Numbered from the stretch's first letter, positions 1 through 15,280 are shown. The stretch: 64,000 nucleotides of DNA from an archaeon (GCA_021851265.1 JAJZIG010000001.1:84-64083), one strand, 5' to 3'. The notes: a model not told the origin generated them from the letters alone. Made by a program: numbers and translations.

Positions 1-168
1 GCTCTCCAAATCCAGTTCGGGGTGCAGAGGGACCACGATGAACGAGACGTCATTGGTCAGCGTGACGTGGCTGGCTCCCCTTCTGCCTGAGCACTCTGAA
101 GCCGAACCGCCTCGCTTCGTCAGTATCTTGACCAGGTCCTTGCCAGAGACCACAGGGAGACGGCTCAA
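1..168 (-). CDS. hicA: HicA-like toxin (mRNA interferase), 3' end beyond window edge
   Basis: Not in the ORF track because it runs off the edge. My translation from TTG at 168 gives LSRLPVVSGKDLVKILTKRG..GASHVTLTNDVSFIVVPLHPELD. This fits the HicA pattern (SGKE/D..kiL...G....GSH......vP.H.eL). It starts 5 nt after the hicB stop. Confidence 0.5.
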   Translation of the reverse strand, partial: MSRLPVVSGKDLVKILTKRGGSASECSGRRGASHVTLTNDVSFIVVPLHPELDLES

Positions 169-434
169 TTGGTCACTCTGCGGGGACGAGCTGCCCTTTC
201 TCTATGGCCACCTTGCCGTGCTCCATGGCGTAGTCGGCCATGGCTTCGAGGTGGGTTTGGATGGCCTCCCTAAGGTTTCGCCTGGCCTCGTCCTTGGTCG
301 CACCCTGGGTGGTGATTCCCAGCCCAGGGACCCTCGCGACGAAGTATCTCTCGCCCTTGTACACCCTGACGCTGAACTGCATGGCCATCAAGCACGAAAA
401 CACTCGCTGACGGTATAAGCCGACACCTGTCAGG
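130..434. repeat. Copy A of a dispersed direct repeat (hicA 5' end + hicB + upstream flank)
   Basis: gaccaggtccttgccagagaccacagg ... ctgccctttctc.atggccac.ttgccgtgctc.atg.cgtagtcggccatggc.tcgag ... taagccgacacc..tgtcagga recurs at 5575-5791 in the same orientation. Confidence 0.75.
173..403 (-). CDS. hicB: HicB-family antitoxin (UPF0150-like)
   Basis: 76-aa ORF. YFVARVPGLGITTQGATKDEARRNLREAIQTHLEAM matches the HicB N-terminal domain signature. It is paired with the hicA-like ORF. Confidence 0.7.
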   Translation of the reverse strand: MFSCLMAMQFSVRVYKGERYFVARVPGLGITTQGATKDEARRNLREAIQTHLEAMADYAMEHGKVAIEKGQLVPAE

Positions 435-802: not shown

Positions 803-1369
803 TCATGGCTGGTCTCTTTCAAGCACAAGTCCGTAGGCTTCTTTGAGCGCACCAATTGCCAGTTTCATTTTCCCGAGGTCATTCTTTCCCCACTCAATCT
901 TAGCGCCTATCGTATAGATTGCTATGTTGCGAGTTCCACCGAATCTCAGTTCCAAGTGTATCTCATGTCGCCTTGATATTTGTCTCAGAACCCTGGCCCA
1001 ATCATCAAATCTCTTGGCAATCAGTGGAAACCTTGAATTGAATGACAGCCGGACGTTGCGTTTCGTGAAGTTGGAAAGGTCCATCTTCATCAGGTCTTTG
1101 GCGCCTTCCTCTCCGTATTCTCTCTCAACGAGCCCTATCGTATCGCCGATTTCGGAGGTTTCTAGCCACACGTAGTTGTCGTGACTCTTCCAAACGTACT
1201 TGATGTGACCAACTTCTTTAGCATAGGCCATATCAGGACACCACACGAACCATTTCGCGTTCTGTTTGACTTCGCTTCGAGATTCAGGCACTTCCGCCAC
1301 TTCGAATGGTGCCCGTACTGACCACGAAAGATAGTCCGCAACCACTTTTTGCTCTGGTTCCTCAGACAT
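803..1369 (-). CDS. Hypothetical 188-aa protein, last gene of the three-gene operon (candidate immunity/partner protein)
   Basis: ORF track. Its ATG overlaps the upstream stop by 8 nt (ATGTCTGA, 1362-1369). Low G+C (28/60 at 841-900). I recognise no motif. Confidence 0.6.
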   Translation of the reverse strand: MSEEPEQKVVADYLSWSVRAPFEVAEVPESRSEVKQNAKWFVWCPDMAYAKEVGHIKYVWKSHDNYVWLETSEIGDTIGLVEREYGEEGAKDLMKMDLSNFTKRNVRLSFNSRFPLIAKRFDDWARVLRQISRRHEIHLELRFGGTRNIAIYTIGAKIEWGKNDLGKMKLAIGALKEAYGLVLERDQP

Positions 1370-3116
1370 TCGAGTTCACCACCTGTCTCACCCGTCTGAC
1401 ATGGATTCGTATCGGGTCATCATTCAGATTCCAATCCATCACCATGACATATCCTCGCTCGATTTCTTCGCCCTGATATTTCCGTTGTCTATCGTAATAA
1501 GTCCCCACCTGAATCTCACCTCGTTTGAGGGCACTCTCTATCTGACCCCAATACTTCGATTCGGAAATCGATAACTTGTGGTCAGGGTCCCGAAATACAT
1601 GGTCAGTGCCGTTTCCTGTGACTCCGACCTTTCGCGTCTCATTAAAGGGGTGCCTTTCTATTCTCTCCCAACCAGCTAGATTCATCAAATTCGAAATCAA
1701 ACCTTCACCTACCTCTCCCTTGACTACACCGTACCTTCTTGTGCCCTCTTCCACCGCGCCTTCAAGGATCGACTTAACAGATTCCTGTAACCTCCTATCC
1801 ACAGCAAAAGTGTAAACCCCATCCGTCCCCTCTGGTGCATCAAGAAGTCTGGCAAGTCGCAGGGCCTCGGGCTTGTCCAGCTGTCCTAGCGAGAGTTTCC
1901 TATCCCCAATATCGGGATGGTCAAGCGACTGTCGATGCTCGTGTACCTCGTTCTTGCTCTGAACATATTTCACCACAAGTTCATCTCCCTCCATCCTCAT
2001 CCCTTCCACAGGGTAGTCCCTGCCGAACCTCACCGCGGCCCTATGTCCGTCGAACTCCAGCTTGCAGTCGTCCTTTCCCTCGAGCTTCCCCCGCAGAACA
2101 AGGTGCGACCCGCTCGTGGACATCTTGTATCCCTCGAGCTCCACCTGGCGCCCGTCCACGTTCAGGAACATCTTCCCCTCCTCGCGCTCCAGCCTGACGT
2201 TCTGCAGGTGTTCGCACTTTCCCCGTTCGAAGTCCCTCGCCATCTTGTATTCGTCAACACCCTTGGCTTCGACTAGCTCGTACTTGCTCCCCTTCGCTCC
2301 CCCGATGTCCCCCACATAGGCCTCCGCCCTGCGGCTTGAGGCGTTGTATCTCGCGTACACAGCTTCCACCTCGTCTCCCTCGATGGGCCTCAGCTCCAGC
2401 TGTACGATCGCGCTGTGGTCAGGCGGGCCGTAGCCTGCCTGCTCCAGGTCGCACATGGGAACCCGCACGTTGGCACCCTTGCCATAGTCGACTGCCTCGA
2501 GGACCCTCGGAACTTCTTCCCGCTCGTTCTGGCCCTGTAAACGCCGCAAACCCGGCGTTTCCGCCTGTTCTTCCTTCTTCTGACCCGGGCTCGCATGCTC
2601 GACCACGAGTATCTGGTCGTCATTTCTGGTGTAGCTCCCAGGACCTGGCTTCTCCGGCGGCTCGGGATCTGGCGGTTTCTCGTCGACACGAGGGTCCTTG
2701 GTGCCGGCCTTTGATCGGACGTCCTTGACCTCTTCCCTGCCCTCCTTCATCCTGTCGGCGTCATCCGCCCCATTCGAACCACCCTTGTCCTGTTGGGCGT
2801 GCTCCTTGGGAGCGTCCTTGCCTGCTTTTTCCTCCTGCGGTGGGGCCTCGCCGGCGTCAGGTCCGGCCTTCTTGGGGTCCTTCCTCACTTCCGACGCTCC
2901 GTCTTTCGCATCGACGGCCTTCTCTCCTTCCTCTCCTTTCTCGCGAGCTCCTGCGCCCTTCCCGTCCTCCTTGCCCGCTATCCCCTCACGCCACCCTTCC
3001 AGGGTCTCCTCGTCGACCCCGTCCACGCCCTTCTCCATCACCTCCTTCCTGAACCCCTCCAGGTCGTCGCCCTTCGACCCCTCGCCCTCGTCGGGCGCGT
3101 CCGACCCTTCACGCAC
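1362..3116 (-). CDS. Large protein: K/E/D/G/P-rich disordered N-terminus, beta-rich middle, C-terminal PD-(D/E)xK-like (restriction-endonuclease-fold) module
   Basis: ORF 1362..3248. I prefer the GTG at 3116, which overlaps the upstream stop by 8 nt. C-terminal motifs: GEVGEGLISNLMNLAGWERIERH, GNGTDHVFRD, LSISESKYW (about nt 1540-1725). Confidence 0.6.
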   Translation of the reverse strand: MREGSDAPDEGEGSKGDDLEGFRKEVMEKGVDGVDEETLEGWREGIAGKEDGKGAGAREKGEEGEKAVDAKDGASEVRKDPKKAGPDAGEAPPQEEKAGKDAPKEHAQQDKGGSNGADDADRMKEGREEVKDVRSKAGTKDPRVDEKPPDPEPPEKPGPGSYTRNDDQILVVEHASPGQKKEEQAETPGLRRLQGQNEREEVPRVLEAVDYGKGANVRVPMCDLEQAGYGPPDHSAIVQLELRPIEGDEVEAVYARYNASSRRAEAYVGDIGGAKGSKYELVEAKGVDEYKMARDFERGKCEHLQNVRLEREEGKMFLNVDGRQVELEGYKMSTSGSHLVLRGKLEGKDDCKLEFDGHRAAVRFGRDYPVEGMRMEGDELVVKYVQSKNEVHEHRQSLDHPDIGDRKLSLGQLDKPEALRLARLLDAPEGTDGVYTFAVDRRLQESVKSILEGAVEEGTRRYGVVKGEVGEGLISNLMNLAGWERIERHPFNETRKVGVTGNGTDHVFRDPDHKLSISESKYWGQIESALKRGEIQVGTYYDRQRKYQGEEIERGYVMVMDWNLNDDPIRIHVRRVRQVVNSNV

Positions 3117-4200
3117 GGGGCCCCGCCTCCAGCTCCTTCCTGAACAGCCTGGGGAACTTCTCCCTCTGCTCAGCGTTGAAGGGGAGATAGTATGCTGTGG
3201 CCAGCGAAAGCACCCTGGTCGCCACCTCGACCACGTCCCTCCCTCCAAACTCCCGGGCCTCCCAGAGCAGGAAGTCCCGCAACCCCTGCGTCCGCCCGTG
3301 CCTCACCCAGTCCCTGTAGGCCCCGAGGAACCCCTCCCTGAACCTGGGGGCTTCCACCAGCGCCTGGACCTTGGCCTCCAGCGGCTCCTCCACTTCCGGG
3401 ACAGGGTTCTTCCTGTAGAACATGGCCATGCACTCCTCCACGTCCGCGTCCGACACCTCGCGCGACTGCATGCTCCACACGTCCTCCCTCACCAGGACCC
3501 TGGCCGGGACCGGGTGCCCCTCGACGCTCACCACCGCCTCCCCGGGCCTGAGCGCCGTGAACACCGCCGCCTGCTCCTCGGTCGCGTTCATCGCCCCGGC
3601 CATCGCCTCCCTGTCAGGCAGGTCAGGGAGCCGGTGGACGAGCTTGGTCGCCGTGTTCTTTATCGCGTCGGGGAGTATCCTCCCCAGGCCGCCGGCGAAC
3701 TCGAGCCTCAGGTTGACGGGGTAGCCGAGCTCGGCGAAGGTCTGAGACAGGCGCTGGAACCTCTGCAGCGTCTCCTTCGGCTCGGCCTTCTTCGTGTCCA
3801 GGTATCCCAGGGGGACGGTCGTCAGCTCGACGCAGCGGAGGGTCTCGGGCCCCCTGTGGCTGCTTCCGCCGAAGATCTCCGAGGCCGGGCCAGCAACCAT
3901 CTCCGTGAACTCCTGGACGAGTCCCGGGAAGAGCCCGAGGACGAGGAGGCTGACCCCGGCGGCGGCGAAGACGATGGGAGAGTAGGTCCCCTGCTCGGCG
4001 ACGGCGACGATGGAGAGGAAGAGGAGGAGCGCCCCCAGGTAGATCATCCAATGCGGCCTCCCGACCCGCGGCTGGGCCTGCCTGTTCGACCAGAACCTGT
4101 AGAGCAGGAAGACCAGGATGGGCACGCCGACTACCAGTGCGCCGACGTTCAGGGCCCACACGGCGAACAGGAACACGAAGGCGGTGAGCTTCCAGCCCAT
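3109..4200 (-). CDS. Membrane protein (about 4 TM) with a soluble domain resembling the post-Walker-B tail of FtsK/HerA-superfamily ATPases; no P-loop seen
   Basis: ORF 3109..4296. I prefer the ATG at 4200 (MGWKLTAFVFLF), which has a TATA-like box 24 nt upstream. Hydrophobic helices WKLTAFVFLFAVWALNVGALVVGVPILVFLL, MIYLGALLLFLSIVAVA and IVFAAAGVSLLVLGLFPGLV. Tail motif IKNTATKLVHRLPD..D.EAMAGAM..TEEQAAVFTALRPGEAVV. Confidence 0.55.
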   Translation of the reverse strand: MGWKLTAFVFLFAVWALNVGALVVGVPILVFLLYRFWSNRQAQPRVGRPHWMIYLGALLLFLSIVAVAEQGTYSPIVFAAAGVSLLVLGLFPGLVQEFTEMVAGPASEIFGGSSHRGPETLRCVELTTVPLGYLDTKKAEPKETLQRFQRLSQTFAELGYPVNLRLEFAGGLGRILPDAIKNTATKLVHRLPDLPDREAMAGAMNATEEQAAVFTALRPGEAVVSVEGHPVPARVLVREDVWSMQSREVSDADVEECMAMFYRKNPVPEVEEPLEAKVQALVEAPRFREGFLGAYRDWVRHGRTQGLRDFLLWEAREFGGRDVVEVATRVLSLATAYYLPFNAEQREKFPRLFRKELEAGPRA

Positions 4201-4218
4201 GGCGGAGAGCCCGCGGGG

Positions 4219-4228
4219 AATACTAAAG
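4219..4228 (-). promoter_or_regulatory. TATA-like box for the three-gene operon (leaderless ATG at 4200)
   Basis: The minus strand reads ctttagtatt, centred about 24 nt upstream of the ATG. Confidence 0.4.
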
Positions 4229-4264
4229 CCGGTTGCGCACCTGTGGGACTCCCCAGAGGAGAGT

Positions 4265-4282
4265 TTCGCCTCGGGAGGCGAA
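4265..4282. promoter_or_regulatory. Perfect 18-nt palindrome between the PIN gene and the operon promoter (hairpin or operator)
   Basis: ttcgcctc-gg-gaggcgaa. Confidence 0.3.
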
Positions 4283-4481
4283 CCATGGGCCGTCAAATCG
4301 AATCAGGGGCTGAGAGGTGGAAATGACCAGCGCTCTTGGAAAGACTTCATCCCTGGCTGTTGTAGGGGACTAGACCACCCGCCACACAGCACCCCTCGAT
4401 CTCACATGGCGACGCCACGGCGGCGTGTGGAGAGGAGCGAAGACATCTCAACTCTGGGAATCGAGGCTTTTGATTGTTCGG

Positions 4482-4919
4482 TCATCTCTTGTACGGGTCG
4501 TCCGTGATGAGATGTCCTTTCTTGAAGTTCACCTCGTTGGCGATGAACTTCAGCAGCGCCGGGTTGCCCAGAAGCTTCCCCTCGAATGTCAGCAGCCCCA
4601 TGCACCTCCGGTCTGTGATGCTCATGGCCAGTATCCGGACATCAGTGCTCTCAAGGTAGCGGTCGACTCTGTGGATCTTGGCGACCATGCTCGAGTAGTG
4701 CCTCAGGTCGTCCGGCTCGACGTGCCCGACAGCGATCTTCTCTTCTTGAAGGTACCTCGTCACTTCACCCAGGTCCAGCTTCAGGTCCTTCTTCGCCGTG
4801 ACCTTGACCAGCTCCCCGAGGCAGATGTCAGGTATGACCGCTCGAATCCCCTTCGCCTTCATCGCGTTGATGGTGTTGGTCGCGAGGTCGGTCTGGTCCC
4901 TGTTCGAAGGGCGACCCAC
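4482..4919 (-). CDS. PIN-domain (VapC-like) toxin; conserved N-terminus lies upstream of the first in-frame start (possible frameshift)
   Basis: The ORF starts at a GTG. It contains IPDICLGELV and STDVRILAMSITDRRCMGLLTFEGKL. The same frame upstream (4920-4997) encodes SSEGVSTAGNYCLDANYAIAYFEGRS, which holds the first PIN acidic residue, but has no ATG/GTG/TTG. Confidence 0.6.
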   Translation of the reverse strand: MGRPSNRDQTDLATNTINAMKAKGIRAVIPDICLGELVKVTAKKDLKLDLGEVTRYLQEEKIAVGHVEPDDLRHYSSMVAKIHRVDRYLESTDVRILAMSITDRRCMGLLTFEGKLLGNPALLKFIANEVNFKKGHLITDDPYKR

Positions 4920-4989
4920 GCTCCTCCCCTCGAAGTACGCGATGGCGTAGTTCGCGTCGAGGCAGTAGTTTCCGGCCGTGGAGACGCCC

Positions 4990-5439
4990 TCACTGGATTA
5001 TGTTCTGTGAACGGAGGTCGCGCAATACCTTCTCTGCCATCGGGTCGGTCACCCAGGGCTTCGACACCCGGAGGGCACCAGGGAGGTCACCGTCGCTTAT
5101 CCCTGCGGGGGTCTCCTTCAGCGCCATGATGGCGGAAGCCAGCTCTATCCAGCTGTCCTTGTGGTCCATGAACCAGTCCAGCTTTGCCAGGACGTCGGGC
5201 TCGAGGTCAGCCTCACCTCCCGGCTTGGCGTTGTAGTACCACTGCGCGAGGGTCGAGGAATAGGGCCCGTGGATGTACAGCCCGTACTCGAGCTCGGTGA
5301 ACGGCTCCACCCCAAGGTGCCTCAGCAGGAAGGCCGCCTTCTGGAGCCTGAACCTGGCCGAGAAGTCGCCGTCGATGGCTCTCGCTGTCACTCTGAGGCG
5401 CTCCATCAGCCATCCAATCGACGCTTCATTCTTGGGCAA
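4990..5439 (-). CDS. DUF4065/Panacea-domain (SocA/GepA-like) putative antitoxin
   Basis: RLQKAAFLLRHLGVEPFTELEYGLYIHGPYSSTLAQWYY fits klqKLlY......g.pl....f.aw.hGPv.p.vY. It lies immediately upstream of the PIN gene. Confidence 0.55.
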   Translation of the reverse strand: MPKNEASIGWLMERLRVTARAIDGDFSARFRLQKAAFLLRHLGVEPFTELEYGLYIHGPYSSTLAQWYYNAKPGGEADLEPDVLAKLDWFMDHKDSWIELASAIMALKETPAGISDGDLPGALRVSKPWVTDPMAEKVLRDLRSQNIIQ

Positions 5440-5473
5440 ACCTGTTCCCCCGAGACGCTTTCAGAGGCCCTCG

Positions 5474-5481
5474 ATATTTAA
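5474..5481 (-). promoter_or_regulatory. TATA-like box upstream of the DUF4065-PIN pair
   Basis: The minus strand reads ttaaatat, about 38 nt upstream of the ATG at 5439. Confidence 0.35.
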
Positions 5482-5574
5482 GGGGGGACGCCGAAACCAT
5501 CGAATCTTGTGGCACGTGTCCCTGGAAGTGTCGGGCCCATGCCGAGCGCCGAAAACGACGTGGGTGAACGACCT

Positions 5575-5737
5575 GACCAGGTCCTTGCCAGAGACCACAG
5601 GGGGGTGGCTCAACCGCTCACTCTGAGGGGACTAGCTGCCCTTTCTCAATGGCCACTTTGCCGTGCTCTATCGCGTAGTCGGCCATGGCCTCGAGATGGC
5701 TCTGGATGGCTTCCCGCAAGTTGCGTCTCGCCGCCTC
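5575..5737 (-). pseudogene. Decayed hicAB copy (frameshifted hicA 5' stub + C-terminal half of hicB)
   Basis: The minus strand encodes EAARRNLREAIQSHLEAMADYAIEHGKVAIEKGQLVPSE-stop (stop at 5618-5620). The N-terminal hicB half present at 290-400 is missing. The hicA start region carries an extra base and then diverges. Confidence 0.65.
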
Positions 5738-5845: not shown

Positions 5846-6100
5846 TTGAAGCGGAGGTCGGACATCGTCATCATGATGCAGGTACTGGAGCAGGTCCGCA
5901 GGGAGCCTAGGGGTCCGACGAGGCTCGCGCAGTCCGTGAACCTTTCGTTCGACAAGTGCATGCCGTATCTCCGGTCACTGGAACAGAAGGGGCTCATCGC
6001 CAAGGGCGCCAGCGAAGGCAGGGACGTCTACATGATAACCCAAGTTGGCGTCGATACGTTCCTGGAGTGGGAGAGGTTGTGGGAGAAGCTCAAGCCATGA
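5846..6100 (+). CDS. Small winged-helix transcriptional regulator (HTH_45-like)
   Basis: RSDIVIMMQVLEQV..PRGPTRLAQSVNLSFDKCMPYLRSLEQKGLI....GRDVYMITQVG fits the archaeal wHTH pattern. Confidence 0.6.
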   Translation: MKRRSDIVIMMQVLEQVRREPRGPTRLAQSVNLSFDKCMPYLRSLEQKGLIAKGASEGRDVYMITQVGVDTFLEWERLWEKLKP

Positions 6101-6151: not shown

Positions 6152-6499
6152 ATGACTGAAGACAGGCCCAGCCAGGTTGAGATTCACGAGGACTTCATCC
6201 AGCACGTGGAGGACGCCAGCTCGAAGATGCGGATACTGTCGGCGGTAAGCGCGGTCGTCGCCTTCCTTCTGGTGCTCGCCTACATCTCGCAACTCGTGCT
6301 CCCTCTGACCGGGACGACGAGCGTGAAGGTGAGCTTGACCGATCCTGCTCTTATTGCAACCGAGATAGCAGTACTGGTTCTGTCCGTCGCCTGGCTCTAC
6401 GTCGGGGTCAGCAACTACCGCTTTACTACGAGGCTGGCCAGGCGCATCGCAGCAGCGAGGGCCGCAGAAGCCGAGTTAGAGAAGAAGATGGCTGGTTAG
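6152..6499 (+). CDS. Hypothetical membrane protein (2 TM)
   Basis: ORF track. Hydrophobic helices AVSAVVAFLLVLAYISQLVL and IAVLVLSVAWLYVGV. Confidence 0.5.
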   Translation: MTEDRPSQVEIHEDFIQHVEDASSKMRILSAVSAVVAFLLVLAYISQLVLPLTGTTSVKVSLTDPALIATEIAVLVLSVAWLYVGVSNYRFTTRLARRIAAARAAEAELEKKMAG

Positions 6500-6580: not shown

Positions 6581-6904
6581 ATGATGTTGGGCTGCCTGCA
6601 AAGCAACCTCTTCTACGAAGTATTGGCTTACTGGTTGCTGGTTTCTGGCGTTATCGGTTTCCTTGCTATGGGCGTCGACAAAGCCCGAGCGAGAGGTGGA
6701 GAGTGGCGGATACCAGAGGCGACGCTGCTAGTCATCTCATTGGTGGGAGGCGCTCTGGGTGCTGCAATAGGAGCGGTGATGTTTCACCACAAGACATCGA
6801 AGCCAAGTTTCTTGGTCCTGTTTCTTCCAGTAGTCGTTCTGTGGCTGTTGGCGTTGCAGTGGGCCGGTTTCCTCGGTCGTCTCGGAACCTACCTTCCGCA
6901 ATGA
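6581..6904 (+). CDS. DUF1294-family membrane protein
   Basis: GVDKARARGGEWRIPEATLLVISLVGGALGAAIGAVMFHHKTSKPSF matches the DUF1294 signature. Confidence 0.65.
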   Translation: MMLGCLQSNLFYEVLAYWLLVSGVIGFLAMGVDKARARGGEWRIPEATLLVISLVGGALGAAIGAVMFHHKTSKPSFLVLFLPVVVLWLLALQWAGFLGRLGTYLPQ

Positions 6905-6994: not shown

Positions 6995-7783
6995 ATGCCA
7001 CCGAAAGAGGCTTTGTACGGCGAACTCGCAGAATATTACAACAGGATATACCATTGGAAAGACTACCGAAAGGAAGCCCAGAAAATCAAGAAACTGGTCA
7101 GAGAACACAAACGGTCTCCAGGTAACCGCCTTCTAGATGTCGCCTGCGGCACGGGGAGGCACATCGCCTTTCTTCGCAAGGACTTCGAGTGCGTCGGTTT
7201 GGACGCCAGTGAGGAACTCCTGAAGGTCGCCAGGAGAGATGTCCCAGGACCAGAATTCCACAGGGGTGACATGACCGATTTCAGTCTTGGGAGACGGTTC
7301 GATGTTGTCCTTTGCCTGTTCAGCAGCACAGGCTACATAAGAACAAAGAACGAAATCAGAAGGGCCACCCTCAACTTCGCGAAGCACATGGCGGAGGGAG
7401 GGGTCCTGATCATCGAACCCTGGTTCCGGAAGTCGGAGTGGCGCGAGAAGACCGTCCACCTGCAGACCTACGACGCCGAATCCCTCAAAATCGCAAGAGC
7501 GAGCTTTGCCACTTCTGATGGTGCGTTCTCGGTGGCCGACGAGTGGTATCTGATAGGCAAAGAGGGGATCGGACTGAGGCTCGTGAAAGACCACCACAGA
7601 ATGAGGTTCTTCGAGCCTGAGCTGTGGCTAGGCGCCCTCCGGGCAGCGGGGCTGGACCCGAGGTTCACCAAGGACGGGCTGATGCGAGGCCGAGGGCTGA
7701 TCATCGCAACGAGGCCTGCCGAGCGAGGCGCTCCCGAAGGCGCGATGAGCCCGACGCACAACAACCGCCCGACCACGACCTAA
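6995..7783 (+). CDS. Class I SAM-dependent methyltransferase (TylM1/DesVI-like architecture)
   Basis: LLDVACGTGRHIAFL (motif I), DVVLCLFSSTGYI, GGVLIIEPW. Confidence 0.8.
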   Translation: MPPKEALYGELAEYYNRIYHWKDYRKEAQKIKKLVREHKRSPGNRLLDVACGTGRHIAFLRKDFECVGLDASEELLKVARRDVPGPEFHRGDMTDFSLGRRFDVVLCLFSSTGYIRTKNEIRRATLNFAKHMAEGGVLIIEPWFRKSEWREKTVHLQTYDAESLKIARASFATSDGAFSVADEWYLIGKEGIGLRLVKDHHRMRFFEPELWLGALRAAGLDPRFTKDGLMRGRGLIIATRPAERGAPEGAMSPTHNNRPTTT

Positions 7784-8622
7784 CGACTCCCCGAGACCAT
7801 GCAGATTCGGGGAGGCTTCTCTGCTGCGTCGTCCAGCAGCCGCTCCGCCTTCTTGTACCCATCTAACACCCCTTTGGGCATTGACGGGTCGTACGGGAAG
7901 CGGATGGGCGCGTAGTCGAGGCTCGTCTCTATGAACTCCTGCGAAACATCGGAGAACCCCTCGACCTCGAGCAGGCGGGCCATCTCGTCGCCGGTCGGAA
8001 GGTCAAGCTCCCACCCCATCTTCGTCCTCATCGAGTAGAATGCCCGGTATCCTGGACTCCCAGGGTCGTTCAGGTCGGACTCGACGACCACCAGGCGCCC
8101 TCCCTTTCCGAGCACCCGCTTCGCCTCGCGTACGAGCCCTCCGATCTCCTCCACACCTCCGAAGTTCCTGATGGAGTGGACCGAGGCCACCAGCTGGAAG
8201 GAGCCATCTTTGAGGGGGATCGAAGTCGCGCTTGCCCTGACTCCTGAGACGCGATGGACGTGCCCCACGATGGCGGACGTCCTCTTGAACTCGTCCCACC
8301 ATCCAGATCTCCCTCTTCCGTCCATGGGGTCCACCCCGACCACTCTGGTCGACCGTGTGGCGCATGCGAAGCTGAAGAAGCCCCTCCCGCAGCCGACGTC
8401 GAGCACGCTGGCGTTCTCGGCCACGAACTTGTCCGCGACCAGGTTCCTCTCTGCGCCGACGTCGGAGGCGTCGAAGACATCTTTCCAGGTTCCCCCGCTC
8501 TTGAAGAACGCCTCCAACCAGCCCGCCCTGGGCTCCTTGGAGAGACCTTTCGTGCCCAGTCTGGGCGCTGCTTGGCCGACCAGGATGTCTAAGGTCGGCG
8601 TGCTCTCCGCGGTCGAGCTCAA
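7780..8622 (-). CDS. Class I SAM-dependent methyltransferase
   Basis: VLDVGCGRGFFSFACA, GGRLVVVE. Confidence 0.75.
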   Translation of the reverse strand: MSSTAESTPTLDILVGQAAPRLGTKGLSKEPRAGWLEAFFKSGGTWKDVFDASDVGAERNLVADKFVAENASVLDVGCGRGFFSFACATRSTRVVGVDPMDGRGRSGWWDEFKRTSAIVGHVHRVSGVRASATSIPLKDGSFQLVASVHSIRNFGGVEEIGGLVREAKRVLGKGGRLVVVESDLNDPGSPGYRAFYSMRTKMGWELDLPTGDEMARLLEVEGFSDVSQEFIETSLDYAPIRFPYDPSMPKGVLDGYKKAERLLDDAAEKPPRICMVSGSR

Positions 8623-8719
8623 TGGGCAGGCGCAGCTGACTGATGAGAGTTAGGCGTTTCCTGGTGAAGACGCAATGAACCCGCACGGCTTTATCATCCT
8701 TCATTCTATTCTGTTATGA

Positions 8720-9664
8720 ATGGCCAGAAGGCTGCGATTCTCGCCTAAATCTCTCGAGCTGACCAGGGCCCACCACTGGCAGGGAAAGAGGAATGAACTG
8801 CTGTATGACATACTGCGGCTCGAGCCTCGCCACGCGGTGGTAGACGTCGGGTGCGGTACAGGGGCGTTCACACGAATCCTTGCTGAGCGGCTGGACCAAA
8901 GGAAGCGCGGCAAAGTCGTCGGTGTCGACCGGGACGCGAGACTCTTGGCGGCCGCGAGGAAGCTCGCCTCTGAATGCGGCCTGTCTTCACGGATTGAGTT
9001 CAGACGGGGCGACGCCAAATCACTCCCATTCCCCGACGGTTTCGCTGACAGGGTCGTGTGTCAGGCCGTATTGTGGCTAATGACCCGCGGTGAGAGAGAA
9101 GCGACCCTCAAAGAAATGCTACGCGTATGCAAGAAGGGAGGCTTGGTTGCAGCGGTCGAAGGCTCCATCGACACTTCAGTTACCTGGTTCCCAGACGACC
9201 CCCGGCTGACTGACCTCTACGCTAGGCAGACCAGGGCCATGATTGAAGGCTACAAGCGGGTCTACGGCTACGACAGGCGCATAGGATACAAGCTCCCCTC
9301 GCTGTTCACCAAGCTTGGGTTGACCGGAGCCCGGTTGGACGGGGTCGCCGACGCGAGGCTGCGCCTGGACGACCGCTTCCCTCTTTCTTATACTCAAGAC
9401 GTCATCGGGCTATGGTACCTCAGATATCCTAGACAACTGCTCTCGAAACTCGACAGGATGGCCGGAGACGGGGCAAGGAGGGCCTACATCGAAAAGTCCG
9501 AGCCAATCCTGACGGCAGGGGGGATGACGTGGAAGGAGATCATCGAGCTCAACAGGCTGAGGATCGAGTACGGCACCAGGCTGTCGAAGGGCCCAAGAGC
9601 TGTCCGCCACGATGCCACGGTCGAAGCAGGGATTTCTTTCATCACGACTGGAATCAAGCCCTAA
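8720..9664 (+). CDS. Class I SAM-dependent methyltransferase
   Basis: VVDVGCGTGAFTRILAERL, PFPDGFADRVVC, GGLVAAVE. Confidence 0.75.
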   Translation: MARRLRFSPKSLELTRAHHWQGKRNELLYDILRLEPRHAVVDVGCGTGAFTRILAERLDQRKRGKVVGVDRDARLLAAARKLASECGLSSRIEFRRGDAKSLPFPDGFADRVVCQAVLWLMTRGEREATLKEMLRVCKKGGLVAAVEGSIDTSVTWFPDDPRLTDLYARQTRAMIEGYKRVYGYDRRIGYKLPSLFTKLGLTGARLDGVADARLRLDDRFPLSYTQDVIGLWYLRYPRQLLSKLDRMAGDGARRAYIEKSEPILTAGGMTWKEIIELNRLRIEYGTRLSKGPRAVRHDATVEAGISFITTGIKP

Positions 9665-13873: not shown

Positions 13874-15280
13874 ATGAACAGCAAGCCGATGTCGATGAGC
13901 CACCTGAAGATCTGGTTCACGGCCGGGATGGGATTCTTTACAGACGCCTACGACCTTTTGATTATCGGGTTCGCCCTGCTGATCTTCGGCGCCTACTCCA
14001 TCCCCGGATTCTCCATGAGCACGAGCATCCTTGGTCAATCCGCTGCGGCTTTCGTCGGCTCCTCTGCCATATTCGCCGCCATCTTCGGTCAGCTCATTTT
14101 CGGCTACTTTGGCGACAGGATAGGGAGAAAGAGAGTCTATGGGATTGAAGCTTCCATCCTCGTGGTCGGCGCCCTGCTGAGTGCAATCGCGGCCAACGTC
14201 TATCTCCTCATTCTCTTCAGGTTCATAGAAGGAATCGGCATAGGCGGAGACTATCCCATCTCTGCGACGATAATGAGCGAGTACTCCAACGTGAAGAACA
14301 GGGGGAGGCTCGTCTCCTTGATCTTCTCCAACCAAGGAATAGGCTCGGTCGCAGCCGTCGCTGTCGGTCTCGCGTCCGTCGCGTTCCTTCCGCCCGCCCT
14401 CGCCTGGAGGGTGATGTTGGGGGCCGGTGCGATACCCGCGGCTATGGTCATCTACCTAAGAAGGAAGCTTCCTGAGACCCCGCGGTACTCGCTCCTCGTG
14501 AAGGGGAATGAAGCAGAAGCAGAGAGGGGAGCCAGAGTGCTTGGGGCAGACATCGCCTACACCCATGTGACCGCGAAGACGTCTAGCCTCTCGAAGTTCT
14601 TCCAGAGATACTGGAAGACACTTGTCGTCACAGCCGGCTCCTGGTTCCTGCTTGACATGGCCTTCTACGGCACCGGGGTCTACTCAGGCCCAATCGTCTC
14701 GGCCATACTCCCGATCAGTTCCTCCCTGCCGACTCAGGCCCAACTCTTCACCAAGGTCTTCGAGGCAGGCATCCCATACTTCGTCGGCTTCTTCGGCTAC
14801 TTCACAGCCGTAGCCCTAATGGACAGGCTTGGACGGAAGGTCACCCAACTGCAAGGCTTCGCCATGATGGCCGTGCTCTACATAGCGGTCGCCGGCTTCG
14901 CCATAACCAAAGGGACCAGCATAACAGGATTCGCCATCCCAGCCGTCGGCGCACTCGCCCTCTACTCAATGTCCTTCTTCTTCATCGATTTCGGCCCCAA
15001 CACCACCACCTTCGTGATACCAGCCGAGGTGTACCCAACCGCGAGGAGGACCACCGGCCACGGGATATCCGCGGCTGCAGGCAAGACTGGGGCTGCAATC
15101 ACCACCTTCTTCTTCCCGGCGCTGCTGGTAAGCATCGGGGTCCAGGGCATCCTTGAGATGCTCGCGGTGGTGAGCGTCGTGGGCGCGCTACTGACCCTCG
15201 GGCTGAAGGAGTCCAAGAACCAATCTCTCGAAGAGGCCTCGAGAGAAGAGCTGGTAGAAGTCCCCACAGTAGAGAGGTAA
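13874..15280 (+). CDS. MFS transporter (sugar-porter/inorganic-phosphate-transporter-like)
   Basis: GFFTDAYDLLIIG, GDRIGRKRVYG, IGIGGDYPISATIMSEYSNVKNRG, about 12 TM. Confidence 0.75.
   Translation: MNSKPMSMSHLKIWFTAGMGFFTDAYDLLIIGFALLIFGAYSIPGFSMSTSILGQSAAAFVGSSAIFAAIFGQLIFGYFGDRIGRKRVYGIEASILVVGALLSAIAANVYLLILFRFIEGIGIGGDYPISATIMSEYSNVKNRGRLVSLIFSNQGIGSVAAVAVGLASVAFLPPALAWRVMLGAGAIPAAMVIYLRRKLPETPRYSLLVKGNEAEAERGARVLGADIAYTHVTAKTSSLSKFFQRYWKTLVVTAGSWFLLDMAFYGTGVYSGPIVSAILPISSSLPTQAQLFTKVFEAGIPYFVGFFGYFTAVALMDRLGRKVTQLQGFAMMAVLYIAVAGFAITKGTSITGFAIPAVGALALYSMSFFFIDFGPNTTTFVIPAEVYPTARRTTGHGISAAAGKTGAAITTFFFPALLVSIGVQGILEMLAVVSVVGALLTLGLKESKNQSLEEASREELVEVPTVER

Follow-up and report, generated by a model that had tools for sequence, protein, structure and literature searches.

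A conserved three-gene operon of an undescribed conflict system in Nitrososphaerota archaea

Organization of the operon

The DNA analysed here, referred to as the window, is a stretch of 64,000 nucleotides from an archaeon (GCA_021851265.1). Its relevant features, with positions counted from the first letter of the window, are the following.

1-168, minus strand: hicA-like ORF, 5' part only, continuing past the start of the window
803-1369, minus strand: gene 3, 188 aa (ORF 1369 to 803)
1362-3116, minus strand: gene 2, the effector protein, 584 aa, GTG start (ORF 3116 to 1362)
1365-1925, minus strand: C-terminal module of gene 2, variable, made up of a linker subdomain and the nuclease domain
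1926-2504, minus strand: beta-rich central domain of gene 2, residues 205-397
2505-3116, minus strand: N-terminus of gene 2, acidic and intrinsically disordered, residues 1-204
3024-3062, minus strand: conserved N-terminal motif of gene 2, residues 19-31, DLEGFRKEVMEKG
3109-4200, minus strand: gene 1, 363 aa (ORF 4200 to 3109)
3678-3679, minus strand: deletion junction in gene 1, GGGGAGG/ATACTCC
4217-4241, minus strand: promoter-like element GGTGCGCAACCGGCTTTAGTATTCC, BRE/TATA-like, 25 nt, containing TTTAGTATT
5846-6100, plus strand: HTH_45 winged-helix regulator, 84 aa, divergent (Pfam HTH_45, E = 1e-13)
6152-6499, plus strand: two-TM protein, 115 aa, following HTH_45

The three minus-strand ORFs are a real, conserved operon of an undescribed archaeal conflict system. 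Adjacent genes overlap by exactly 8 nt, as a first-pass annotation of this DNA had reported, with GTGCGTGA at 3116-3109 between genes 1 and 2 and ATGTCTGA at 1369-1362 between genes 2 and 3, and in all orthologous operons examined both junctions again show start/stop overlaps, of 1-23 nt. Gene 2 is translationally coupled to both gene 1 and gene 3. The ATPase gene to which gene 1 belongs, gene 2 and gene 3 lie side by side in about 10 independent lineages, and since the trio is conserved in at least 10 such lineages, these are more than chance ORFs. The trio matches no named system, with nothing similar in Pfam, NCBIfam, PADLOC or PHROGs, nor in the literature searched.

A TATA-like sequence, TTTAGTATT (4227-4219), is found about 23 nt upstream of the gene-1 ATG. 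The surrounding GGTGCGCAACCGGCTTTAGTATTCC, which probably functions as a promoter element, is kept almost base for base 5' of the orthologous ATPase genes in loci L001, L003 and L006. It is also conserved in L013, but farther upstream of the ATPase gene, so that the earlier description of a leaderless operon does not extend to every lineage; with L001 and L003, this makes three other lineages that conserve the element.

Gene 1 and the membrane-anchored ATPase family

Alignments show that gene 1 of the window derives from an 898-aa membrane-anchored HerA/DUF87 ATPase by an in-frame deletion of 1605 bp. The full-length gene is carried by sister contigs whose gene 2 is 100% identical, and on both flanks of the 1605-bp gap the window is 100% identical to L006. 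In BLASTP comparisons with the L001 ATPase, residues 1-176 of gene 1 align with 24-199, and residues 174-363 with 732-923. An identical junction is present in L007, an independent assembly. The 535 lost codons correspond to residues 175-709 of the full protein and include the Walker A motif GMTGSGKT; no Walker A motif was found in gene 1 of the window. What remains is the N-terminal TM module (residues 1-98, nt 3907-4200), followed by some 75 aa of the N-terminal domain and by the last 189 aa of the protein.

The hydrophobic stretches of gene 1 (residues 3-39, 49-73 and 71-98) fit three to four TM helices, in keeping with the four helices first described, but the soluble domain said to follow them is a deletion remnant without ATPase. 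Likewise, the proposed membrane-anchored FtsK/HerA-like partner is borne out for the full family, which is a HerA ATPase, but the window copy consists only of a TM anchor and C-terminal tail and is not a functional partner of that kind. Because the motor is lost while the nuclease and its partner are intact, the window allele is probably a non-deploying, still immune variant.

Full-length alleles match Pfam DUF87 above threshold. Matches to HerA models span E = 1e-8 to 1e-14 (about 1e-14 for PADLOC HerA), with scores of 33-44 bits against a cut-off of 800 for the anti-phage HerA equivalog models, and HerA proteins in the PDB are matched at E = 4.5e-6. The best named NCBIfam match is CedD (E = 1e-17), which at about 60 bits against a cut-off of 600 supports superfamily membership only.

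Gene 2 encodes a leashed, very probable nuclease

Gene 2 carries a conserved motif near its N-terminus and, after a disordered acidic leash, a beta-rich domain that precedes a PD-(D/E)xK nuclease domain. There are 33 close homologues, and a wider search returned 173 cluster representatives; in all loci with enough contig, a DUF87 ATPase is encoded directly upstream.

The motif DLEGFRKEVMEKG has the family consensus LE(E/D)FR(E/K)E. Of the 19 full-length members with a match, 17 carry it near residue 13-21, and in P0014 and P0025 it lies further in. It is also present, in some cases twice, in proteins of a distant operon type, type B, and is a candidate docking peptide. The low-complexity N-terminus and beta-rich middle noted at first pass are both evident. 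The former (about 190-204 aa, 28% D/E, net charge -19) has counterparts of 128-446 aa with net charges of -16 to -98, and cannot be aligned among homologues, the motif excepted. The beta domain, modelled by AF2 with strands throughout (pLDDT about 90), is the better-conserved part, at 62-95% identity, and partly tracks the ATPase (Spearman 0.57-0.67 against its TM, N-terminal and tail regions). It is duplicated in type B, P0032 and P0033.

The C-terminus of gene 2, for which a restriction-endonuclease fold had been suggested, is very probably a PD-(D/E)xK nuclease, given its motifs, predicted topology, Foldseek matches and an in-register hhalign match. A linker subdomain (residues 398-458) precedes a RecB/NucS-like nuclease domain (residues 459-584), with candidate catalytic residues on the minus strand at E471 (nt 1706), D505 (1604), E519 (1562), K521 (1556) and Q536 (1511). 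K521 is invariant across homologues and each of the other four occurs in 90% of sequences or more; for the wider family the consensus is GPD...ExKWW...QxxxY. The AF2 model (pLDDT 84.8) gives the nuclease an alpha-beta-beta-beta-alpha-beta topology. In Foldseek searches, EndoMS/NucS is the top PDB match and phage PD-(D/E)XK nucleases lead in BFVD (probability 0.91-0.99), the best single E-value for the fold being 6e-3, such that no single match is statistically strong. With hhalign, the D, ExK and QxxxY elements fall in register with a YhcG_C/NucS_C nuclease. Gene 2 has no PADLOC match.

Gene 3 and the exchangeable cassette

Gene 3, in which no motif had been recognised, likewise matches no library family and nothing in PADLOC, and profile searches define it as a new family of about 190 aa (43 members of 185-207 aa, detected only by profile). 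Its AF2 model (pLDDT 89.8, pTM 0.84) is weakly similar in fold to 3cxj, the MotA double-wing domain and T3SS chaperones. It is a candidate immunity or inhibitor protein, the putative cognate partner of the nuclease module.

The nuclease domain and gene 3 are inherited as one exchangeable low-GC cassette, decoupled from the ATPase. Across eight independent operons (28 non-independent pairs), nuclease-domain identity follows gene-3 identity (Pearson 0.97, Spearman 0.90), whereas ATPase identity does not follow nuclease-domain identity (Pearson 0.18, Spearman -0.01). For instance, L006 and L001 share 80% identity in the ATPase, 33% in the nuclease and 30% in gene 3, and the corresponding values for L006 and L003 are 65%, 97% and 93%. 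GC content is 0.50 in the nuclease domain and 0.48 in gene 3, versus 0.68 in the ATPase.

Two displaced nuclease 3' remnants lie just beyond the window, and an intact gene-3 paralogue follows each of them. The hicA-like ORF continues, one base past position 1, into the first remnant (orphan 1), after which come two further gene-3 paralogues:

L006 13117-13437: orphan 1 remnant, corresponding to the final 109 aa of a gene 2 of L001 type (73% identity, E = 3e-50)
L006 13434-14021: gene 3', 195 aa
L006 about 14096-14266: second remnant, corresponding to the final 58 aa of a gene 2 of L025 type (E = 1e-16)
L006 14247-14825: gene 3'', 192 aa, 93% identical to L025 gene 3

Orphan 1 begins at the most conserved motif, GWERIERHPF, and comparison of gene 3'' with its active counterpart gives a dN/dS of 0.15. 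Orphan modules were seen in one lineage only (L004, L006-L012) and may simply be recent. Two paralogous systems are found within one MAG.

Co-variation, GC content and orphan modules together support cassette exchange of the toxin/immunity style. The toxin/immunity arrangement proposed at first pass is upheld in so far as the C-termini vary with the downstream gene (r = 0.97), the outcome of a comparison that had itself been suggested, and orphan modules exist. It does not hold in full: the C-termini all have one nuclease fold, in divergent versions, and do not form a set of unrelated toxins, and type B lacks gene 3.

Neighbourhood and distribution

The HTH_45 regulator adjoins the operon in L001, L002, L003, L006, L013, L022 and L023 and is a conserved companion of both operon types; in the window lineage, two inserted genes (4482-5439) separate it from the operon. 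The 115-aa two-TM protein has no family match, but ORFs of 115-118 aa are found beside HTH_45 in L001, L003, L006 and L013, and its membership of the system is uncertain.

That the operon sits beside toxin-antitoxin (TA) loci is supported by the TA and RM genes around it. Nearby TA pairs occur in L003, L006 and the window, type IIG RM genes in L001 and L014, HEPN in L014, and Mrr, an SLFN-helicase plus MazG, and a NucS-like nuclease in L013. In type-B operons the ATPase gene and gene 2 are still adjacent and the nuclease motifs intact, but gene 3 is missing and an extra RecA/Rad51-like ATPase is present. The family comprises about 170 clusters, all those placed so far belonging to Nitrososphaerota/Thaumarchaeota, and no relatives were found on viral contigs.

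Possible functions of the cassette

An intact cassette consists of a small wHTH regulator, a membrane HerA-family translocase, a leashed nuclease effector and a partner of about 190 aa. We regard it as an undescribed conflict cassette of Nitrososphaerota in which the motor would deploy the nuclease and gene 3 would act as immunity or safety catch; export of the nuclease as a polymorphic toxin is our preferred reading, held with less than even confidence. The translocase would form a hexamer anchored in the membrane by its N-terminal 4-TM module, the N-terminal motif would dock the effector onto the ATPase or TM module, and the unstructured acidic N-terminus would be threaded by the membrane motor. 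The target would be related archaea; gene 3 would bind and neutralise its cognate nuclease, and retained orphan copies would protect against the variants of neighbours.

Several observations count against export. Gene 2 has no signal peptide, the loci encode no further envelope component, and no way into a target cell is known. The single shared C-terminal fold is unlike classical polymorphic toxins, and the RM, TA, HEPN, Mrr and SLFN-helicase genes nearby are a standard defence-system signature. Type B, without gene 3 but with a RecA/Rad51-like ATPase, points to intracellular DNA transactions and, to our knowledge, characterised HerA-clade members move DNA, not protein. T7SS toxins are exported by motors that are FtsK/HerA-type ATPases, and few polymorphic toxin systems occur in archaea (PMC3482391).

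Among known systems, T7SSb EssC-EsaD-EsaG(-EsaE) of Staphylococcus aureus and T7SS/LXG toxin systems in general likewise encode a membrane FtsK/HerA-superfamily ATPase with a nuclease toxin, a cognate neutralising protein directly downstream, strain-variable toxin C-termini with immunity, and extra orphan immunity genes. In the S. aureus system, EsaD is the nuclease toxin and EsaG its cognate neutralising protein. The host here is archaeal, however, and a single HerA-clade P-loop domain with a 4-TM N-terminus replaces the three to four tandem FtsK-type domains with FHA of the T7SSb motor. There are no WXG100, LXG, EsaA, EssA or EssB genes here, an acidic disordered region takes the place of the helical LXG domain at the head of the effector, and the nuclease has a PD-(D/E)xK fold. 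The EccC-type resemblance suggested at first pass can thus be functional at most. Nuclease colicins and pyocins with Im proteins, CdiA-CT/CdiI and Rhs orphan modules share the tripartite effector (disordered N-terminus, central domain, C-terminal nuclease), the small co-varying cognate protein just downstream, homologous nuclease domains of distinct specificities, and displaced downstream C-terminus/immunity modules. In this archaeal system, by contrast, no lysis gene, T5SS, T6SS or Rhs shell was found, the disordered region is acidic where that of the colicin-like systems is Gly/Ser-rich, the point of demarcation falls within the nuclease domain, and any delivery machinery would be a HerA-type ATPase.

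A less likely, though possible, function is intracellular defence against viruses or plasmids, whereby a membrane HerA hexamer captures incoming DNA and feeds it to the leash-tethered nuclease, in the mode of HerA-NurA or HerA-DUF4297. Gene 3 would be a safety catch or sensor subunit contacting the nuclease domain, nuclease/partner variation would reflect an arms race against inhibitors made by viruses, and effector swapping would have left the orphan modules as by-products. HerA-clade ATPases partner nucleases in known DNA-processing and defence complexes: archaeal HerA-NurA (end resection) and anti-phage HerA-DUF4297 and SIR2-HerA also place a hexameric HerA-family ATPase beside a nuclease effector with which it presumably works, DUF4297 is itself PD-(D/E)xK-like, and the context here is defence-island-like. 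That context recurs in independent loci (L001, L003, L006, L013, L014 and the window), anti-phage HerA models and structures are among the best ATPase sequence matches, there is always an adjacent wHTH regulator, and type-B operons do without gene 3, which would be expected if the effector is auto-inhibited. Yet no PADLOC system model was matched, scores fall far below the equivalog cut-offs, and no NurA, DUF4297 or SIR2 domain was found. Known defence HerA proteins are cytosolic, whereas the ATPase here is membrane-anchored and about 300 aa longer. A leash and a beta domain are part of the effector, and the system further includes a third partner that co-varies and orphan cassettes. Such strong one-to-one co-variation is reminiscent of toxin-immunity pairs, and two full-length orphan partner genes beside eroded C-termini, with a dN/dS of 0.15 for gene 3'', are easier to explain as immunity to exogenous toxins.

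It is improbable that the operon is a DNA transfer or uptake module, with the ATPase pumping DNA across the membrane like CedB/CedD, TraB or VirD4-type coupling proteins, the PD-(D/E)xK protein processing it like a MOBC-type relaxase or competence nuclease, and gene 3 an accessory or inhibitor, as Nin is for NucA. A membrane coupling ATPase is paired with a restriction-endonuclease-fold relaxase in mobilisable plasmids, for example MobB/MobC of CloDF13, and type B has its RecA/Rad51-like protein. CedB/CedD of crenarchaeal Ced import likewise come from a TACK archaeon and combine TM segments with an N-terminal domain and a HerA/VirB4-like ATPase (PMC11868833), and CedD, the best named match of the ATPase, is a TM-anchored protein required for DNA import in Sulfolobales (PMC11868833, PMC11823120). 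However, the CedD score is a tenth of its cut-off, CedD has 527 aa versus about 900 here, and Ced has no dedicated nuclease-partner cassette. No CedA, CedA1, CedA2, VirB or pilin genes lie near the examined loci, which lack flanking integrase or replication genes, viral contigs yielded no relatives, and cassette polymorphism with orphan modules is unexpected for housekeeping uptake or transfer.

Least probable, and indeed very unlikely, is a selfish addiction pair hitch-hiking beside an unrelated membrane ATPase, with orphan gene-3 copies as anti-addiction modules: a toxin gene followed by a small co-varying partner, retained orphan partners, an intact nuclease-partner pair beside the destroyed ATPase of the window, and interleaved HicAB-like and other TA genes fit it, but gene 2 always lies directly downstream of, and overlaps, the DUF87 ATPase gene, even in type B, where gene 3 is absent, its beta domain co-varies with the ATPase regions, and its N-terminal motif and leash would have no role in a simple TA pair.

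If the preferred reading, export as a polymorphic toxin, is true, the cassette would correspond in function to EssC-EsaD-EsaG, or else to the pairing of nuclease colicins and Im proteins.

Operon organization and library searches

The three genes of the operon lie on the minus strand and overlap as the first-pass annotation had described, with GTGCGTGA and ATGTCTGA at the junctions, and a TATA-like sequence is found upstream of the first of them.

4200-3109, minus strand: gene 1 ORF (363 aa)
3116-1362, minus strand: gene 2 ORF (584 aa)
1369-803, minus strand: gene 3 ORF (188 aa)
4227-4219, minus strand: TATA-like TTTAGTATT, part of the 25-nt element GGTGCGCAACCGGCTTTAGTATTCC

The 25-nt element is kept 5' of the orthologous gene in three other lineages, and at the orthologous locus L013 it is positioned farther from the AUG codon. 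The earlier statement that the trio matches no named system holds, as Pfam, PADLOC and NCBIfam give nothing significant for any of the three proteins, and PHROGs gives no match for genes 2 and 3. PDB sequence searches with the window proteins also return no match. No matching system is described in the papers searched, on the dark matter and immune strategies of archaea, the mobile elements of thaumarchaea, polymorphic toxins and Ced, a coverage that leaves out Makarova 2019 (mBio) and Iyer 2004 (NAR). For the 64-kb window as a whole, there is no Rfam family at gathering threshold, no tRNA gene and no tandem repeat.

Comparison of orthologous loci firmly supports a conserved, undescribed cassette, in which a predicted, leash-tethered PD-(D/E)xK nuclease is obligatorily accompanied by a HerA-family motor anchored in the membrane. 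The evidence for the motor, the nuclease and the small partner is taken in turn.

A HerA-family motor and its deletion allele in the window

In the orthologous loci inspected, gene-2 homologues are always found directly 3' of a DUF87/HerA protein of 876-975 aa, built of a 4-TM module, an N-terminal domain of ~300 aa, a HerA core and a tail of ~120 aa. The undeleted allele on L006, a sister contig of the window, encodes 898 aa, and this protein and its orthologues score 32-41 bits against Pfam DUF87 (cut-off 23.2) and carry the Walker A motif GMTGSGKT. The full-length ATPase also matches PADLOC HerA (E ~1e-14) and HerA proteins of the PDB (E = 4.5e-6). With NCBIfam, the full-length orthologues reach 60-64 bits for CedD against a cut-off of 600, 33-44 for HerA_antiphage against 800, and 18-26 for helicase_HerA against 970. 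Since these scores fall far under the equivalog cut-offs, they support superfamily membership only, and the ATPase is assigned to the FtsK/HerA superfamily and to no curated family within it.

The protein encoded by gene 1 of the window retains 3-4 hydrophobic helices within its first 98 residues, and aligns with the orthologue of locus L001 in two blocks (residues 1-176 with 24-199, and 174-363 with 732-923). It has neither a Pfam match nor a Walker A motif, and hence lacks the P-loop (DUF87) feature of FtsK/HerA proteins, and its C-terminal tail gives only weak matches to HerA (E = 0.016) and CedD (E = 0.04). The initial description of a 4-TM/ATPase-tail protein is accurate, but for a broken gene whose core is deleted and whose L001 and L006 orthologues are full-length; the description of the same product as an FtsK/HerA-like partner does not apply to the window protein, whereas the L006 allele does qualify.

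The deletion can be placed precisely. Window DNA matches L006 at 100% as far as L006 position 7833, and the match is taken up again at 9438, giving a clean, in-frame loss of 1605 bp (535 codons) with essentially no microhomology, by which residues 175-709 are removed, including GMTGSGKT. A gene 2 100% identical to that of the window is present on contigs of the same population, where L006, L008-L012 and at least 16 similar places encode the 898-aa ATPase; among the sister contigs listed, the 363-aa form is found in L007 only. An assembly error is unlikely, because the same junction occurs in L007, a separately assembled contig with 5 differences from the window in 9000 bases, indicating a real minority allele. 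The motor of the window is accordingly predicted to be dead, with genes 2 and 3 intact, and the window allele cannot use it under any of the readings considered below.

Gene 2 carries a predicted nuclease domain

Residues 1-204 of gene 2 are disordered and strongly acidic, with a net charge of -19 in the window and of -16 to -98 in relatives, nearly all of which share an LE(E/D)FR(E/K)E motif near the N-terminus (approximately residue 13-21). Neither a signal peptide nor any known trafficking domain is found in gene 2 (0 Pfam families), and the candidates for a putative trafficking function are the conserved motif and the acidic leash, together with the adjacent membrane ATPase.

An AF2 model of residues 190-584 (mean pLDDT 84.8) has an all-beta region at residues 205-397, a small linker subdomain, and a C-terminus arranged as helix-strand-strand-strand-helix-strand-strand, the alpha-beta-beta-beta-alpha-beta core of which is modelled at pLDDT 85-93. 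In this model the first helix bears E471, D505 immediately precedes the second strand, E519-x-K521 is on the third strand, and Q536 is in the helix after it. Among 20-23 homologues K521 is invariant, and the other four residues are at least 90% conserved. The catalytic signature of PD-(D/E)xK enzymes (helix-1 acid, (P)D, (D/E)xK, QxxxY) is present in gene 2, and 41 divergent nuclease domains share the consensus E...GW...HP...GPD...ExKWW...QVxxY. The PD, ExK and QxxxY elements are motifs of RecB/NucS-like nucleases.

Structural and profile comparisons give individually weak matches. With Foldseek, the top PDB match is EndoMS/NucS (E = 0.02, probability 0.41), and the top BFVD matches are PD-(D/E)XK nucleases, RecB-family exonucleases and regions of bunyaviral cap-snatching endonucleases (probability 0.9-0.99, E = 6e-3 to 5e-2). 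By hhalign, D, ExK and QxxxY are in register with a YhcG_C/NucS_C nuclease, at E = 0.008 and low probability. Per-member Pfam scans of the gene-2 family give only weak hints (HamA, RmuC, REase-ARP, DUF7346), and comparison with Mrr_cat is uninformative. Pfam and PDB sequence searches return no significant match, and the 41-sequence profile finds nothing in the PDB under E = 0.75. Because all lines agree, a nuclease fold at the gene-2 C-terminus is nevertheless highly probable, as the first-pass annotation had proposed from the motif residues. An AbrB/MazE-like swapped hairpin considered for the VDYGKGAxVRVPK segment was dropped, the hhalign comparison with a MazE protein giving E = 0.58.

The gene 3 family

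A word-indexed search returns two close relatives of gene 3, and the impression that the gene is nearly without homologues is an artefact of that search. A profile made from four window-type sequences (including both word-search matches) and the syntenic ORFs of loci L001 and L002 finds 43 proteins of 185-207 aa, all hypothetical and all on the same contigs as gene-2 homologues, with no Pfam family for any member. The AF2 model of gene 3 (pLDDT 89.8, pTM 0.84) has as its nearest PDB folds the uncharacterised Methanothermobacter protein 3cxj (E = 8e-4), the MotA double-wing domain, and class-I T3SS chaperones. These neighbours suggest a protein that binds or serves as an adaptor rather than an enzyme.

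Distribution and two operon types

Operons with gene 3, here type A, occur in approximately 10 independent lineages, so that the three genes do co-occur, a point that the first-pass annotation had left to a survey of synteny. Their order is a divergent HTH_45 wHTH gene (often with a two-TM protein of ~115 aa), the ATPase, gene 2 and gene 3, and gene 3 follows gene 2 with an overlap of 1-23 nt in all type A loci. In the window lineage only, two minus-strand genes (145 aa and 149 aa; 4482-5439) lie between the HTH_45 regulator and the operon, and neither protein has a Pfam match at E < 0.01, which leaves their earlier labelling as a TA locus tentative.

The more distant type B operons (L021-L023) are without gene 3, as judged by HMM search, and have the order HTH_45, a ~400-aa protein ending in a wHTH-like segment, a RecA/Rad51-like ATPase, a ~350-aa stand-alone 'MGW' 4-TM protein, a HerA-type ATPase and a gene-2 homologue. 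The HerA-type ATPase is 47% identical to that of type A, the stand-alone protein carries the same 'MGW' 4-TM module as the ATPase, and the gene-2 homologue has a duplicated beta domain and intact nuclease motifs.

An exhaustive profile search with gene 2 yields 173 clusters at 50% identity, nearly all of which keep the beta-rich plus nuclease architecture and have N-termini of very different length; every annotation among the ~170 gene-2 clusters and the 43 gene-3 proteins is hypothetical. Only six loci are found in GTDB species representatives, in five of them, all Nitrososphaerota/Thaumarchaeota MAGs. The MAG 'Thaumarchaeota archaeon clean25' (L016, L017) carries two paralogous systems, with gene-2 regions 94% and 53% identical to that of the window. 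A metagenome scan adds one duplicate of L014 and one fragment, and IMG/VR viral contigs contain no relatives with the usable patterns.

Variants of gene 2 are also seen. At L026 (1122-3794) it is split in two: the acidic leader, in which the LE(D/E)FR motif occurs twice, is in a 273-aa ORF, and a 598-aa ORF encodes a divergent nuclease behind a beta domain that is duplicated; this may be a frameshifted gene or a genuine two-part variant. At L003/L004, the orphan beta-rich domain of a gene-2 paralogue (~754-1545; HMM positions 4-214, E = 1e-43) lies ~4 kb 5' of the intact operon, past a PIN/MazE pair.

Among independent loci, L001 and L014 have type IIG RM genes as neighbours, joined at L014 by HEPN, and L013 lies near Mrr, an SLFN-type helicase with MazG and a NucS-like nuclease. 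Fic and AlkZ-like genes also occur around the loci, and L003, L006 and the window have PIN/MazE or HicAB-like pairs. Integrase, replication, pilus and T4SS genes were not seen around the inspected loci. In the window, three successive SAM-dependent methyltransferase genes occupy 6995-9664 (262 aa, plus strand; 280 aa, minus; 314 aa, plus), adjoined by a gene for a DUF1294 membrane protein (6581-6904).

Exchange of the nuclease domain with its partner gene

The operons are mosaics, in that similarity of the ATPase does not predict similarity of the nuclease.

Identity between operons
L006 (window lineage) and L001: ATPase 80%; nuclease domain 33%; gene 3 30%
L006 and L003: ATPase 65%; nuclease domain 97%; gene 3 93%
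L006 and L025: ATPase 72%; gene-2 C-terminal two-thirds (not nuclease domain alone) ~21%; gene 3 25%

Correlations between modules (8 independent operons, 28 pairs; pairs phylogenetically non-independent)
Nuclease and gene 3: Pearson 0.97; Spearman 0.90
ATPase and nuclease: Pearson 0.18; Spearman -0.01
Beta domain and ATPase TM, N-terminal domain and tail: Spearman 0.57-0.67

GC content along the locus
ATPase 0.68; gene-2 leader 0.64; beta domain 0.60; linker and nuclease 0.50; gene 3 0.48

Between L006 and L025, the N-terminal trunk of gene 2 (P0033 at L025) is still 51% identical, and between loci in general the nuclease domain is 30-97% identical as against 62-95% for the beta domain, with a drop in GC at the nuclease module. 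It had been asked at the outset whether gene-2 C-termini vary together with the downstream gene, and the first of these correlations indicates that they do. Sequence comparison firmly supports the view that the nuclease domain is exchanged together with its specific small partner. The C-termini are not unrelated toxins, a possibility rejected because the nuclease domains are all homologous to one another and share one set of catalytic residues.

Orphan modules beyond the window edge

Displaced copies of the exchanged unit are found just outside the window.

L006 13117-14825, starting 1 nt beyond window position 1: two orphan modules, with gene-2 remnants of 109 and 58 codons and partners of 195 and 192 aa

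In the case of the first module, a hicA-like ORF from window position 168 continues in frame as the 109 C-terminal residues of a gene 2 of L001 type (73% identity, E = 3e-50). This remnant begins exactly at the conserved GWERIERHPF and overlaps by 4 nt a full-length gene-3 paralogue (gene 3', 195 aa), whose match to the family profile is better than that of gene 3 in the operon itself. Some 80 nt on, the 58 C-terminal residues of a gene 2 of L025 type (E = 1e-16) overlap a third full-length paralogue (gene 3'', 192 aa), 93% identical to the active gene 3 of L025; dN/dS against this counterpart is 0.15 at dS = 0.24, a value that covers both branches and not the orphan branch alone. Truncated C-terminal remnants beside intact partner genes are the pattern of cdiA-CT/cdiI and Rhs orphans.

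A 164-nt direct repeat (85% identity; window 129-292 and 5574-5737) represents two copies of a hicB-like gene, the first complete (173-403), the second 5'-truncated and followed by a 50-aa hicA-like ORF (5461-5613). The repeats bracket the operon and the 145- and 149-aa genes, and may trace assembly or movement of a 5.4-kb block.

Relation to known systems

Three of the four sequence-level hallmarks of polymorphic toxins are found at the locus. There is a variable C-terminal module on a conserved trunk, decoupled from the ATPase, all C-termini being of one fold; there is a directly downstream partner gene that co-varies with the toxin domain, with a putative immunity role and with type B operons lacking it; and there are orphan C-terminus/partner modules, in L004 and L006-L012, all of one lineage. 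The missing hallmark is a known trafficking route, that is, an N-terminal signal tying the toxin to a recognised secretion pathway.

The closest functional analogue is EssC-EsaD-EsaG of T7SSb. Nuclease colicins and their Im proteins are alike in architecture, and CDI and Rhs orphan modules in locus dynamics. The nearest systems by homology are HerA-NurA, HerA-DUF4297, SIR2-HerA and CedB/CedD, and the cassette differs from each. The EccC-type resemblance proposed earlier is at most functional: unlike EssC/EccC, the ATPase has a single DUF87/HerA domain and no tandem FtsK/SpoIIIE domains (the FtsK_SpoIIIE profile reaches only E = 0.011, below cut-off), and WXG100/LXG or Ess/Ecc families are encoded by no neighbour of the inspected loci. 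Gene 2 and its homologues are without NurA, DUF4297 and SIR2 in Pfam and PADLOC scans. The parts are of known kinds (a HerA motor, a PD-(D/E)xK nuclease, a cognate partner), and what is new is the combination, the membrane anchoring and two protein families.

Functional interpretation

Beyond architecture, conservation and recombination history, the function of the cassette is something that we infer. From co-variation and the orphan modules we argue that gene 3 physically recognises its cognate nuclease, and probably neutralises it. On that basis, the cassette is likely to be a conflict system.

As to how such a system would act, we tentatively favour a reading in which the nuclease is exported as a polymorphic toxin and gene 3 confers immunity, with odds somewhat short of even. 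In its favour are the anchoring in the membrane, a modular trunk whose C-terminus varies, the intact orphan partners, and an unstructured leader suited to threading. If the nuclease is indeed such a toxin, the window allele would represent a non-producer that is still immune. In its most specific and rather doubtful form, the proposal is of an archaea-specific toxin-export machine, whereby a repurposed membrane HerA-clade DNA pump would thread the polyanionic, DNA-mimicking leader and export the PD-(D/E)xK nuclease against related archaea, with gene 3 as cognate immunity.

The defence-island context of the loci, the known DNA substrates of the HerA clade, and the existence of type B operons without gene 3 all favour intracellular defence, where foreign DNA would be reeled in by the motor and passed to the tethered nuclease, with gene 3 as a safety catch; we consider this unlikely, but a serious contender. 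A module for DNA uptake or transfer is improbable: CedD similarity and the RecA-like gene of type B speak for it, but it leaves the polymorphism unexplained. The CedD and HerA scores of the cassette ATPase are an order of magnitude below the cut-offs, and there are no Ced-like neighbours by Pfam in 10 loci, in which respects the cassette is distinct from Ced DNA import. A hitch-hiking TA pair is very improbable, being contradicted by the universal linkage to the ATPase.

Implications

The cassette joins two known themes, the coupling of a HerA motor to a nuclease and the exchange of nuclease-immunity cassettes with orphan modules, and three things set it apart as new: its anchoring in the membrane, its restriction, so far, to Nitrososphaerota/Thaumarchaeota, and the new families formed by two of its three proteins. 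To our knowledge, CRISPR and restriction-modification apart, very little is known of how archaea combat each other or their mobile elements. Polymorphic toxin systems are regarded as uncommon among archaea and as acquired from bacteria (PMC3482391). Alleles that have lost the motor naturally, as in the window, provide a ready comparison inside one population. The proposed toxin-export machine, if true, would be the first system for secretion of polymorphic toxins that is native to archaea rather than bacterium-derived; it would also constitute a new class of protein translocase. If the motor exports the nuclease, the cassette would represent a new secretion principle, and if it supplies the nuclease with DNA, a new defence system sited at the membrane.
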